DNA of 64,000 bases from Octopus vulgaris (taxonomy: Eukaryota): the NCBI GenBank assembly GCA_951406725.2, contig OX597825.1:35154001-35218000 (forward strand), given 5' to 3'. A program made the position numbers and the translations under genes. The notes beneath the pieces are model-generated. The model searched no databases, was not told the DNA's origin, and worked only from the letters and a program-made list of their open reading frames with translations. Below, piece by piece: positions 4,446 to 50,958 of the stretch (positions within the stretch are counted from its first letter, which is position 1; each line of letters opens with the position of its first letter).

Positions 4446-4670
4446 AATGTGTTTGGTAGACGGATATTGAAAGAAGCCTGCCGTATGTATATACGTATAT
4501 ACATACGGCAGGCTTCTTTCAATATCCGTCTACCAAACACATTTGCAAGGATTTGGTCGGCTCGAAGCTATAGTAAAAGACACTTGTCCAAGGTGCCACT
4601 TAGTGGAACTGAATATGAATCCATAGAGATAGGAAGCAAACATCTTACCATACAACCCAACCACGCCTGC
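4228..4670 (-). mobile_element. tRNA-derived SINE family A, diverged copy with internal palindrome; its 3' tail piece probably lies at 3911-4010
   Basis: Reverse-complement similarity to 14107-14526 (gacacttgtccaaggtgccac, gtctaccaaa, cctatcggtctc). Confidence 0.82.
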
Positions 4671-20404: not shown

Positions 20405-20440
<36 letters not shown>

Positions 20441-20536
20441 ATCCAAACATGAAAACACAAGAAGAAAACACAACAACGCGAGGACGTGGAACAAGTATAG
20501 TGTTATTGGACGCTCAGGAAAGGAAAGAAAGAAGGA

Positions 20537-20574
20537 GGATCTAACGTTTCGAGCGGAGCTCTTCGTCAGAAACA
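20537..20574 (-). ncRNA. Minimal hammerhead-like motif (CUGACGA-A variant) inside module 20436-20641
   Basis: Minus: gttt CTGACGA A gagc-tcc-gctc GAAACGTT agat. Confidence 0.65.
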
Positions 20575-20658
20575 TAGAAAAAAGAAAGATCTAAGGAAGG
20601 GAATACGGAGGAAAAAATCGCCGACGATACATACGCGGTCACACACACACACATATAA

Positions 20659-21287: not shown

Positions 21288-21480
21288 AGGTCCCGGGTTG
21301 AGTCGGGGTTAACCACAGTAAATAAGGTACTCAATACATAGCAGAGTAAAATAATTTATTATATAGAAGGAGTTCTACAGGACTAGAACTGTTTCATTCA
21401 AAAGAAATCATCAGGAACCTTCCTGATGATTTCTTTTGAATGAAACAGTTCTAGTCCTGTAGAAGCTCCTTCTATATAAT

Positions 21481-25578: not shown

Positions 25579-25744
25579 TTATCTCGGTAACCATGGAAGC
25601 TATGAAAAATACAAAGCCCAGCAACGCCACCGGATCATTCTACACATCTGTATCATTTTTTGCGCAATTCCACCCAGCCGTTTGACCGTGAATCCCAAGA
25701 TAAGAAAGAATCGCCCATGTCAAATACATATGCATGTATGTATA

Positions 25745-25853
<109 letters not shown>

Positions 25854-25941
25854 ATTCAAATCTACAGAAAACAAAAGACGAAGACAGGTGAGAGAACAGC
25901 AAGGAGATATAATTGTTTGACGCTCGGGAAGAATGGAAAAG

Positions 25942-25979
25942 TCTTTGACGTTTCGAGACCACACTCTTCGCCAGAAAGG
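25942..25979 (-). ncRNA. Minimal hammerhead-like motif (CUGGCGA-A, core mutated) inside module 25850-26062
   Basis: Minus: cttt CTGGCGA A gag-tgtggt-ctc GAAACGTC aaag; stem I is cttt/aaag. Confidence 0.6.
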
Positions 25980-27621
25980 ACTGAGAGGCAAAAATGGAGG
26001 GAGAACGTAAAAGAAAAAAGAAACGGAGAGAGGACAACGTGTGTAGGGATAACGGTTCAAAGCACACACACACATATACACACATGTGTGTGTGTGTATG
26101 TTCGCACATACACCCACACATCTATATACACATATATGTATGTATGTAACATGCTTATGTTTCTTAAGGTCTATAGTTTGTTTTATCCACCAACTCAGGC
26201 CATGTGTATATTAGTAAGCGTGTCTGTGACTAATATTTTTGTTATTTCTTGGCGAATTTTGTTTGATATAGAATTAGAATCAACTGATCACACGCAGTAT
26301 ATTACTGGTTTTGGAAAACCGGTACGCTGTTGGAACTTGAACGTACACTAAAGGAATAAGTACTAAAATCGCGATGATGAATAATCGATGATTTTCGATT
26401 CAGTAAACATATGATTAAAAGAATGGCTTTCCAGCCATGACCAGTCAATAATTTTCTACGGGAATATGTACTCTGGAGCACATATGTCCCTTTTTTTAGA
26501 TGGTAGAATGTAGTTTGAGATTTTAGCACTTCCAAGCAGAAGCTCCCACATTTGCTCGTTTGCAATCATTCGTATTGTAAAAGTCCTTAGAATGGCAAGA
26601 TACAAGTAAAGGTGTTTTTGAGAAACACGAAGCCAGAGCTAAATCGTGATGTACACGTTGAACAGCGAGAACCAGAAGGTTGACATACACATCTGCCAAA
26701 CAAGAGCTAAAATCTTTTGTTTGATTCATTAGTCCGAAGTAGCTTTGGCTGAGGAAACGCAGCAAGGTCGAAACATCAAGTGTCCTAAAGTAACCTTACT
26801 CTTATGAATCGAGTGTGTTGAGAATACATAATCATCTAAAAAGAGAAGTTATTAACTAATGATGAAATACGACAGAGATTAACATTTTTACATTCAAATC
26901 TGCCAGAACGTATTAAGAATGAATATATGTCATCGTTCTGTTATAAGCAGGTAACTGCACGCATTAGCAAAATAATTTGTTTACTGAATGTATACATAAG
27001 AGCCAAACTCGTTAAATTCATTAGTGCGATGTAGCTTTGGCAATAAGGTCGAAACTTCGGGTGTAACAAAGTCCCCTTATTCCAAGGAATTGAGTATGTT
27101 ATGAACACACATTCGTCAAAATACAACAACGATTAACATTTTCAAACCGGCCAGAATGTATTAAGTACGTATCAGAGTTAATATTGAAAATTATACTCAA
27201 GAATGCCAGATATTTTAGGGAATAGTTGACACTATTACTGAGATGAAGCATCTGAAGAAACTTCAGTGATAAGAAAGTTGCTGTTTAACCCTAGCAGCCT
27301 GGTTGTATAAACCAATGATCGGAGATGTTCCAGCTATGGCCTTCAAATCGTTTTATCAGATAGTGTACTTTCAAGCTCATTATCTAATGCATCCTTCCTG
27401 CTTGAAACAAAGAAAATTTGGCTGCAAGTTTTAGCAAGTGGAACGACTACGTAAGACGCACTTTCGTAATACCGTGCAAGGCAAGGTAAAACAAATAATT
27501 GCGGACTTTTGTAAAATTGTATTATTTATTTAATATGATTTTATTTCATGTTGCATTTGATGAACAAGAACGTCATTTTTGTAGGTTTCTAACGGGCAAA
27601 AATTATTTACATTGCATTTAT

Positions 27622-47148: not shown

Positions 47149-47698
47149 TCTTTTCTACTCTAGACACAAGGCACGAAATTTTTTGTGGGGAAGAGGCCAG
47201 TCGATTAGATCAACTCCAGTACGCAACTGGTACTTAATTTATCGACCCTGAAAGAATGAACGTAAAGACAAACAAAATACCTATTTCTTTACTACCCACA
47301 AGGGGCTAAATACAGAGAAAATAAACAAGGACAAACAAACGGATTAAGTCGATTACATCGACCCCAGTGCGTAACTGGTACTTATTTAATCGACCTCGAA
47401 AGGATGAAAGGCAAAGTCAACCTCGGCGGAATTTGAACTCAGAACGCAACGGCAGACGAAATACCTATTTATATACTATCCACAAGGGGCTAAACACAGA
47501 GAGGACAAACAAGGACAGACAAACGGATTAAGTCGATTATATCGACCCCAGTGCGTAACTGGTACTTATTTAATCGACCCCGAAAGGATGAAAGGCAAAG
47601 TCGACCTCGGCGGAATTTGAACTCAGAACGTAGCGGCAGACGAAATATCGCTAAGCATTTCGCCCGGCGTGCTAACGTTTCTGCCAGTTCGTTGCCTT
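47149..47698 (-). mobile_element. SINE family B with triplicated body
   Basis: Three repeats of aactggtactt...atcgacc. Confidence 0.9.
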
Positions 47699-50105: not shown

Positions 50106-50830
50106 TATGAGGAAGATATGTTTATAAAATCTAGTAAATAATTATAAAATGAACGGGAAGATGATTCATTAGTTGTGAGTTGATATGCTAATATAACAGG
50201 ATCGCAGTTGGAATATTGGAATATCTCATGTGTCTGACTGAATTTATTAACTGAAATACAAGTAACGTCAATGATGTAACTGTAGCAATCAGTTGAACCT
50301 GTGTGTGGTTTTCACTTCAACTAACAGGCAGAAGAAATACGGCGCTAATGATGTGCACGTGCGCACACACACGTATGCACGTGTATACATAAACACACAT
50401 TAGTGACAGTTCGATCTTTTCAATGCTATTTGTGTATTTTTAAACCTTTACAAGTACTTTCATGTTTTACAACACGCTTCAGATTAATGCATGCGTATTG
50501 TCGTTAACAGACTATATAGATTTGCACAATAGTAAATTAGAAACAATACAGTAATGTCATATTCAGTTTGTTAATGCCGCTATATAAATGGTTTCAGATT
50601 ATTTCCACTTTTGTATACAGCGATGCTATCTAGTTTGTTAATGCCTCAACGCATACTTTTATCTGAAATGTGATAAAACATTAACGTACTTATGGAAAGA
50701 TGAAATCAAAAATTAAAATGTGAAAATCTGACTGTCTAAATTCATTTGAATGATATATTTATCTATACATAATGTTACAAATTTACTCGGACTATTCTTT
50801 CTTTTCTCTCCGGACCTTTTCTCTTTCGAC

Positions 50831-50865
50831 TTTCTGACGAAGAGCCATCCGCGAAACGTCACACA
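50831..50865 (+). ncRNA. Minimal hammerhead-like motif (CUGACGA-A variant, degenerate stems) inside module 50770-50915
   Basis: ttt CTGACGA A gagccatccgc GAAACGTC aca, followed by ctgagcgtc at 50888. Confidence 0.55.
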
Positions 50866-50958
50866 CCCAGTCTTTTTCCATCTTTAACTGAGCGTCAGCC
50901 TAATATATATATATGTAATAAATCTCTGAACGAGGTATAAACAGTAGCTGCACGACAA

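Follow-up and report, generated by a model that had tools for sequence, protein, structure and literature searches.

Hammerhead-bearing modules of Octopus vulgaris appear to be 3' ends of Neptune-like Penelope elements and show a preferred 5' boundary

The three hammerhead-bearing modules in a 64,000-nucleotide stretch of Octopus vulgaris contig OX597825.1 (the window) are, judged from their sequences, 3' terminal repeats (pLTRs) of a Penelope-like element (PLE), probably of the Neptune type, each from a different subfamily. They represent ordinary PLE ends with a standard minimal hammerhead and not a new family. Two unexpected results were less ordinary, namely a wall of 5' ends at ~210 bp and the dominance of altered hammerhead cores. 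We consider it probable that the window modules are solo pLTRs of three autonomous subfamilies in which copying stopped ~210 nt in, most likely by run-off inside the pLTR. The features that speak for this explanation are the continuity of modules with an ORF, the fixed 3' end in (TA)n, and the accumulation of 5' ends at a distance of 70-90 nt upstream of the hammerhead core, with none at the cut site.

The modules lie where the original prediction had placed them, with the layout it described and each with a minimal hammerhead motif (Table 1). A pattern for the full layout matched the window exactly three times, compared with a mean of 0.08 (maximum 1) in 50 dinucleotide shuffles of it. Taken by themselves, the GAGCGTC box (4 matches, 1.9 expected) and a loose hammerhead core (46 matches, 47.5 expected) were not above chance in the window as judged by shuffles. 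The subfamily labels F1, F2 and F3, as well as F1y and F2y for younger branches, are our own. Copy 1 has its 5' end at about -74 from core C3, runs to the fixed 3' end GGATTAAC followed by (TA)n, and is 85% identical over 146 nt to the 3' end of the ORF-bearing element L061. Its hammerhead consists of stem I GUUU/AGAU (two wobbles), the canonical core CUGACGA, an extra A, stem II GAGC/GCUC and GAAACGU; N17 is U, and the cut is predicted between 20543 and 20542. The other two copies also had the predicted placement and layout, with some departures in detail. Copy 2 combines stem I CUUU/AAAG and N17 = C with a core reading CUGGCGA, in which position 6 is G where its subfamily mostly has U, and with U opposite U at one place in stem II. 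In copy 3 the core is canonical, stem II contains two mismatches, and stem I is reduced to its first and third pairs; the 5' end of this copy lies at about -57, and its tail stops ~9 nt past the box, followed by a short (TA)n and without the last ~55-60 nt of the F3 tail. Copies 1 and 2 are thus wall-length products of 207 bp each, and copy 3 is shorter at both ends. The relatives L161 (same place as L079) and L131 (same place as L108) carry a GIY-YIG segment 967 and 682 nt upstream of the module, respectively. The spacers between core and box are 73-89% pyrimidine in the three copies. Mean column identity in an alignment of the three was 64%, and each was 77-94% identical to many copies of its own subfamily.

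Table 1. Positions of the modules and their parts in the window
Feature	Position	Strand	Remarks
Copy 1, solo pLTR, subfamily F1, 207 bp	20437..20643	-	92% to L019 over 204 nt
(TA)15 at 3' end of copy 1, putative target	20407..20436	.	
Copy 1, minimal type I hammerhead motif	20539..20573	-	core 20544-20569; matches consensus in PMC4209133 supplement
Copy 1, GAGCGTC box	20509-20515	-	28 nt after GAAACGT
Copy 2, solo pLTR, subfamily F2, 207 bp	25854..26060	-	80% over 206 nt to L161
(TA)n after copy 2	25737-25853		
Copy 2, hammerhead motif	25943..25978	-	core 25948-25974
Copy 2, GAGCGTC box	25919-25925	-	22 nt after GAAACGT
Copy 3, degraded pLTR, subfamily F3	50777..50905	+	80% over 123 nt to L131
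Copy 3, hammerhead motif	50830..50864	+	canonical core 50834-50859
Copy 3, GAGCGTC box	50890-50896	+	30 nt after GAAACGT

Elsewhere in the window, tblastn found no PLE ORF remnant, blastn with 7 subfamily queries found no further module pieces, and an Rfam scan gave no hammerhead family among the 150 listed of 211 matches, the top ones being microsatellite matches to miRNA models. The window also contains near-perfect palindromes around short AT-rich spacers (4451-4538 and 21379-21460) and a SINE-like repeat in two tandem 184-bp copies (47275-47647). Two opposite-strand CTGATGA...GAAAC matches were discarded as hammerheads; they come from the palindrome at 21379-21460.

To identify the modules we turned to the whole genome (2.8 Gb in 227 contigs), in which a pattern search of the kind originally proposed, with Y at position 7, gave 5,006 matches versus 0 for the reversed control. 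In the first 30 matches the 3' end was constant and passed into (TA)n, whereas the 5' end varied from copy to copy, and in one short copy (L029) the start of a PLE-like ORF lay directly upstream of the module. A search with the L029 peptide produced 150 scored matches, many of them in open frames of 884-1,061 aa. Twenty stretches around these matches were fetched, and among those listed we found 6.2-kb units composed of an ORF, a 3' UTR of up to 2.9 kb and the module; such units form head-to-tail tandems in L051-L053, with a module ending each unit, and a further unit (L331) measures 4.6 kb. Sixty loci were then chosen by GIY-YIG similarity alone, without use of the module (two of them being the queries), and their 1.5-kb downstream flanks were examined. 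The module lay 446-1,015 nt downstream on the same strand in 43 of the 60, upstream in 2 and antisense in 1, and several module-less loci ended in a long CA-rich UTR. Of the loci related to copy 2 and to copy 3, of which 30 were collected for each, L079, L108 and L124 have GIY-YIG sequence ~680-970 nt upstream on the same strand, in the form of fragments and not of intact ORFs. All three subfamilies consequently have members continuous with a GIY-YIG ORF, and they share an upstream TTCCGGTCA-like landmark. Because loci picked by GIY-YIG carry the module downstream and copies are continuous with the ORF, we regard the modules as pLTRs of paralogous PLE subfamilies. The suspected link to PLEs is borne out by the 43 loci, whose modules lie downstream of GIY-YIG sequence, and the suspected targeting of (TA)n by the presence of TATATA within 12 nt of the 3' end in 58 of 70 F1 copies. 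The idea of a separate, undescribed non-autonomous family is not supported, since all three subfamilies have members continuous with a GIY-YIG ORF and the fetched loci showed no same-subfamily tandems of short units; structurally the modules are ordinary PLE terminal repeats, an outcome that the original prediction had itself named as contrary to it. The elements may already stand in the Repbase or Dfam catalogues.

The parent elements have a single ORF combining RT with a C-terminal GIY-YIG domain (L054, 1,008 aa stop to stop; L331, 1,119 aa) and showing the motifs DKG, G..MG, YIDD and GIY-YIG. Pfam matches of this ORF were weak and below cut-off, and its Atlas neighbours carry RVT_1/GIY-YIG/HTH_animal at 0.98. 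The upstream pLTRs vary in length, forming partial tandems. A CX2-5CxxC linker between RT and EN (CSRSRCNTC, CSRPRCRTC) places the parent elements in Neptune or Nematis, to which this linker is common (PMC8557442). The clade looks like Neptune from a by-eye comparison, not a tree, in which the spacer before GIY was long, like that of two Neptune rows and unlike that of two Nematis rows of the supplement.

Some further observations concern these elements and their surroundings. The 3' UTR of the young 6.2-kb subfamily (L054:6025-9000, L051-L053) is ~2.9 kb long, CA-rich and microsatellite-like, so that the element would spread simple-repeat-like DNA through the genome. At L069:8363-8638 and G000:C1:1878305-1878476, modules lie on opposite strands, 140-250 nt apart. 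They represent either two insertions placed tail to tail in a single (TA)n or inverted structures of the sort that PLEs typically form. F1 3' flanks (L191-L220, L251-L290) start with TTTA in 23 of 70 cases, as does a tandem junction of the sister subfamily (L058, L067), so RT may have two start sites next to each other. Beside the studied elements there are also pieces of more distantly related ones, with RT or GIY-YIG sequence, at L065:4-2384 (-), L012:2127-3026 and L063:8088-8891 (-); those of L065 and L012 have ~31-33% identity to the L054 RT.

With regard to length, the short copies pile up at ~210 bp, in keeping with the predicted preference for a length near 200 bp. The sample used to measure this was anchored at the 3' end only, as a guard against sampling bias, and came entirely from contig C1. 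It comprised 70 of the first 71 of 4,952 F1 matches (one was left out because another match of that locus lay only 42 nt away) and the first 70 of 5,511 F2y matches; the neighbouring pairs L214/L215 and L307/L308, which look like duplicates, were kept. For each group a single long copy served as the reference on which 5' ends were placed. Truncation was slow from the 3' end to -69 (0.002-0.003 per nt). Among the copies reaching -70, 44/46 of F1 and 28/44 of F2y had their 5' end between -70 and -90 from the core, compared with ~5% expected from the truncation rate downstream of the wall. Sixteen F2y copies pass the wall, 11 of them beyond -700, and in F1 only 2 of the 70 do so. At the predicted hammerhead cut site there was no pile-up, as one F1 end and one F2y end fell within 4 nt of it versus 1.1 expected. 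The fine peaks fall on AT dinucleotides, as expected from microhomology with a (TA)n target. On its outer side the wall is bounded by a TCA at about -86 to -84 in both F1 and F2y, which we take to resemble an initiator. The 5' ends of F2 and F3 also thin out, in samples biased by the queries, at the same upstream landmark, there without a stable hairpin. In one locus (L029:1206-1420, which coincides with L212) the pLTR begins at -85, the outer wall edge, and is directly preceded by a fragment from the N-terminal part of the ORF, itself preceded by proline-rich coding sequence; a template jump or an internal deletion may have produced this joint. Contigs of the 4 runs searched for expression contained no element start, end or joint.

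Run-off at an RNA 5' end is in our judgement about an even call as the cause of the wall. The pLTR of PLEs holds a promoter and start site (PMC2377424, PMC8557442), and a PLE protein has been found to nick AT-rich DNA and to start copying inside the RNA downstream of the pLTR, giving an insertion product that shortens as the template 5' end shortens (PMC11167929). By analogy with these other PLEs, target-primed, internally started reverse transcription and a pLTR promoter would operate here too. The element's RT/GIY-YIG protein would nick (TA)n DNA, copying of the RNA would begin at the fixed 3' edge of the pLTR, and an RNA starting at about -84 within the pLTR and running into the ORF would yield a run-off cDNA of ~210 nt, i.e. 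a solo pLTR. The pile-up at the wall may accordingly mark the transcription start. Longer copies would arise from read-through tandem RNAs or template jumps, and the joint at -85 in L029 would fit a jump. Against run-off, the wall is weak in the youngest U4C subvariant of F1y, where 12 of 14 copies pass it. This count covers contig C1 and compares two 19-mers, one within the zone (a rare variant, with 78 vs 570 matches) and one 40 nt further upstream: of 14 copies containing the first, 12 contained the second too. Moreover, only 2 of 13 upstream pLTRs before ORFs start at the wall, both looking like one duplicated event; most extend further, and their 5' ends range from -20 to beyond -1,500. 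Finally, a hairpin of 6-7 bp straddles the wall in the two groups where the wall is strongest.

This hairpin points to a different cause of the wall, which leaves the PLE identity as it is and is an alternative to run-off alone. The RT may be stopped by a short hairpin or a pause site, or the cDNA may fold back there, with the end being joined to the target at an AT in the loop. In F1 (-9.7 kcal/mol) and older F2y (-9.7, -7.3) the segment from -105 to -55 folds into a hairpin over the zone, the fold is weak or different in young F2y (-6.3) and F1y (-2.9), and wall strength follows the same order. The pLTRs of A. vaga also have 5' palindromes (PMC3846280). However, only four groups were compared, and in F2, F3 and F1b, where this hairpin is missing (0 to -4.4), ends nevertheless fall in the corresponding zone. 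A stem of 6-7 bp is also a weak block to RT. We therefore rate a pause as somewhat unlikely. A hairpin conserved at the wall in all subfamilies was rejected, the structure being present only in some.

The original prediction had called the hammerhead a variant. The traits concerned, a nucleotide between 9 and 10.1 and a palindromic 15.2-16.2 pair, equal the published metazoan PLE consensus, which further includes G10.1-C11.1 and a U-rich lead (PMC4209133), and they are therefore the norm. Most PLE hammerhead motifs are single and probably derive from truncated PLEs (PMC4209133). The consensus core (CUGANGA plus the extra nucleotide, G10.1-C11.1, GAAA, the palindrome and UH) is present in copies 1 and 3, with copy 2 departing from it by its G at position 6. 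The covariation that had been anticipated was minimal, with one stem I pair switching between G-C/G-U and C-G in one lineage split and no two-sided change in stem II; 89% of stem cells pair in 23 hand-picked representatives, and F3 lacks most of stem I.

It is also evident that most cores are altered. Exact matches in the genome numbered 20,549 for A6U, 9,322 for U4C and 5,006 for the canonical core, the last being a slight undercount because its pattern allowed only C/T at position 7, which was free in the A6U pattern. U4C or A6U thus accounts for 29,871 of 34,877 matches. Both altered cores are found on subfamilies with long open ORFs and near-identical copies, from which we infer recent activity. 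Since altered cores dominate, including in young subfamilies with open ORFs, transposition probably needs no fast cleavage. Such cores are predicted to cut poorly: A6C and U4C lower cleavage in other hammerheads (PMC3088659, PMC7151607), and no A6U hammerhead came up among the papers listed in a literature search, although such core variants may already have been described. In the anole PLE, hammerhead mutants leave in vitro insertion unaffected and cleavage needs protein (PMC11167929), and the function of the hammerhead in EN+ PLEs has been called unclear (PMC8557442). Stem III would form only as a dimer, through the ACGU palindrome, and the hammerhead is predicted to be a weak or protein-assisted cutter. 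As templates are copied straight through the cut site and most cores are U4C or A6U, these insertions do not appear to need hammerhead cleavage. The motif could conversely still be under selection as an efficient ribozyme, one that reduces tandem transcripts to unit-length pieces which then circularise. All 23 aligned representatives agree at G8, A9, the extra A, G10.1-C11.1 and GAAAC..U, the variation at position 7 and N17 is as free as hammerheads allow, and stem I has its one compensatory change. We nevertheless find this unlikely in view of the excess of A6U and U4C over canonical cores, the lower activity of A6C and U4C in other hammerheads, the broken stem I of F3, a predicted stem I probability of 0.00-0.24 in 10 monomers and the lack of 5' ends at the cut site.

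The GAGCGTC box did not hold as an invariant sequence. The 43 GIY-YIG-linked modules have GAGCGCC in 30 cases, GAGCGTT in 3, GAGCGTC in 2 and other sequences in 7, and in 1 it is absent; in modules found without using it, the box is conserved as GAGCGYY, 19-31 nt past the core. Our guess is that the pLTR probably uses it as a cis-element recognised by its sequence, either in the promoter or for binding of the RT. Pairing of the box with the 3' strand of stem II had a predicted probability of 0.05-0.78 in 10 representatives; a switch based on this pairing showed no compensation and is kept only as a lead.

Wall, fold and box can be joined in one reading, which we hold to be less likely than not: the short copies would be a strong-stop PLE product, and the hammerhead fold would be kept without a need to cut. 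(The term strong-stop did not occur in the literature surveyed for it.) RT would begin directly downstream of the 5' pLTR on RNA of its own element and run off at the transcription start; solo pLTRs of fixed length would record the start site and, when joined to a longer copy, may regenerate pLTRs. The hammerhead fold, preserved over tens of thousands of insertions with A6U or U4C cores, and the GAGCGYY box would then together serve as a protein-recognition or promoter element.

Whether the ~210-bp copies are by-products or a lineage of their own was approached through F2y haplotypes (42 of the 44 copies). The older haplotype comprises 19 wall copies and 1 long copy, the younger 8 and 14 (permutation p < 0.0005). 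Each of the 19 older-haplotype wall copies had a GIY-YIG-linked locus matching it at 94-99% identity, and of the 27 wall copies in total, 3 did not differ from a long copy by any substitution. On account of these matches and substitution-free copies we read the ~210-bp copies as by-products, although the uneven distribution over haplotypes would also be expected from a separate short lineage. The skew thus leaves room for a self-propagating pLTR-SINE, that is, a solo pLTR whose internal promoter drives transcription into the (TA)n flank and whose RNA the PLE protein copies in trans. The short copies have the defined 5' end and length of a SINE-like element, with the wall at -70 to -90 in F1 and F2y and a fixed 3' end; only 2/70 F1 copies pass the wall, just 1 in 20 of the older haplotype is long, and non-autonomous pLTR derivatives are known in Chlamys and Xenopus. 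As to a lineage of its own, the skew, seen in 42 copies only, stands against the fact that every short haplotype has a GIY-YIG-linked counterpart at 94-99%. The same boundary moreover recurs in successive subfamilies, no same-subfamily tandem units were found in the fetched loci, and the anole PLE protein depends on RNA downstream of the pLTR, namely the initial 172 nt of the ORF (PMC11167929), a segment missing from solo pLTRs. All in all, a pLTR-SINE seems quite improbable. Recombination between the two pLTRs of full elements, suggested for solo pLTRs of A. vaga (PMC3846280) and in line with the higher share of wall copies in older groups, is very improbable here, because the product of such recombination would inherit its 5' end from the upstream pLTR, and this end in our small sample, mostly from other subfamilies, varies from -20 to beyond -1,500, so that no wall is expected.

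No obvious mechanism for pLTR regeneration is known according to PMC2377424. Both this process and hammerhead function become directly testable in the octopus genome, whose subfamilies are young, high in copy number and equipped with open ORFs, and in which a 5' boundary can be measured and core variants occur naturally. The by-products of the analysis should also be useful to PLE specialists. A literature search found no account of these hammerheads in a cephalopod. An octopus repeat annotation from 2026 describes 31 recently active Penelope-like families (PMC13282606), and its main text does not contain the words hammerhead or ribozyme. Repeat annotation may file the ~210-bp ends as unclassified SINEs.

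Among known systems, the modules most directly recall the minimal PLE hammerheads of Cervera and de la Pena 2014 (PMC4209133), with which they share the U-rich lead, CUGANGA with an extra nucleotide, G10.1-C11.1, GAAA with palindrome and UH, a short stem I, several consensus families per genome and mostly single motifs from truncated PLEs. They differ in a stem II of only 4 bp and in that most copies carry U4C or A6U, which were not met in the material of that paper, where U3-A8 is reported; its searchable supplement does not mention cephalopods. As in the C-terminal EN+ PLEs of the Neptune clade (Craig et al. 2021, PMC8557442), the parent elements have a single ORF in the order RT, CX2-5CxxC linker and GIY-YIG, partial tandems, pLTRs, 5' truncation, microsatellite insertion and a hammerhead near the 3' end. 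In contrast to these, the 3' UTRs are 0.5-2.9 kb long and largely of CA-rich simple repeats, and the short copies have a sharp 5' boundary instead of the variable truncation described for the clade. Animal non-LTR retrozymes (PMC7229834; bioRxiv 10.64898/2026.07.22.740005) are likewise short, non-coding, hammerhead-bearing and related to PLE pLTRs, and monomers exist. However, their definition requires tandem units, with two or more short units in succession, each having a complete hammerhead; in PMC7229834 the hammerheads are canonical and there are circular RNAs. Among 249 module detections in the fetched loci (some of which overlap) we found 3 same-strand pairs less than 1 kb apart, all between different subfamilies. 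Since same-subfamily tandems are lacking and the short copies match GIY-YIG-linked loci, the modules fall outside the retrozyme definition; they differ further in their minimal hammerhead and in a sequence continuous with an ORF-bearing parent. In A. vaga, solo pLTRs occur, as do pLTRs of ~200 bp that carry the 5' palindromes (PMC3846280). Poseidon of the green anole, PAc (PMC11167929), belongs to the Penelope/Poseidon clade and its hammerhead overlaps the ORF start, whereas here it lies ~100 nt before the pLTR end. PAc nonetheless resembles the octopus elements in its AT-rich targets, in a fixed RT start downstream of the hammerhead and in copies made through an uncleaved hammerhead.
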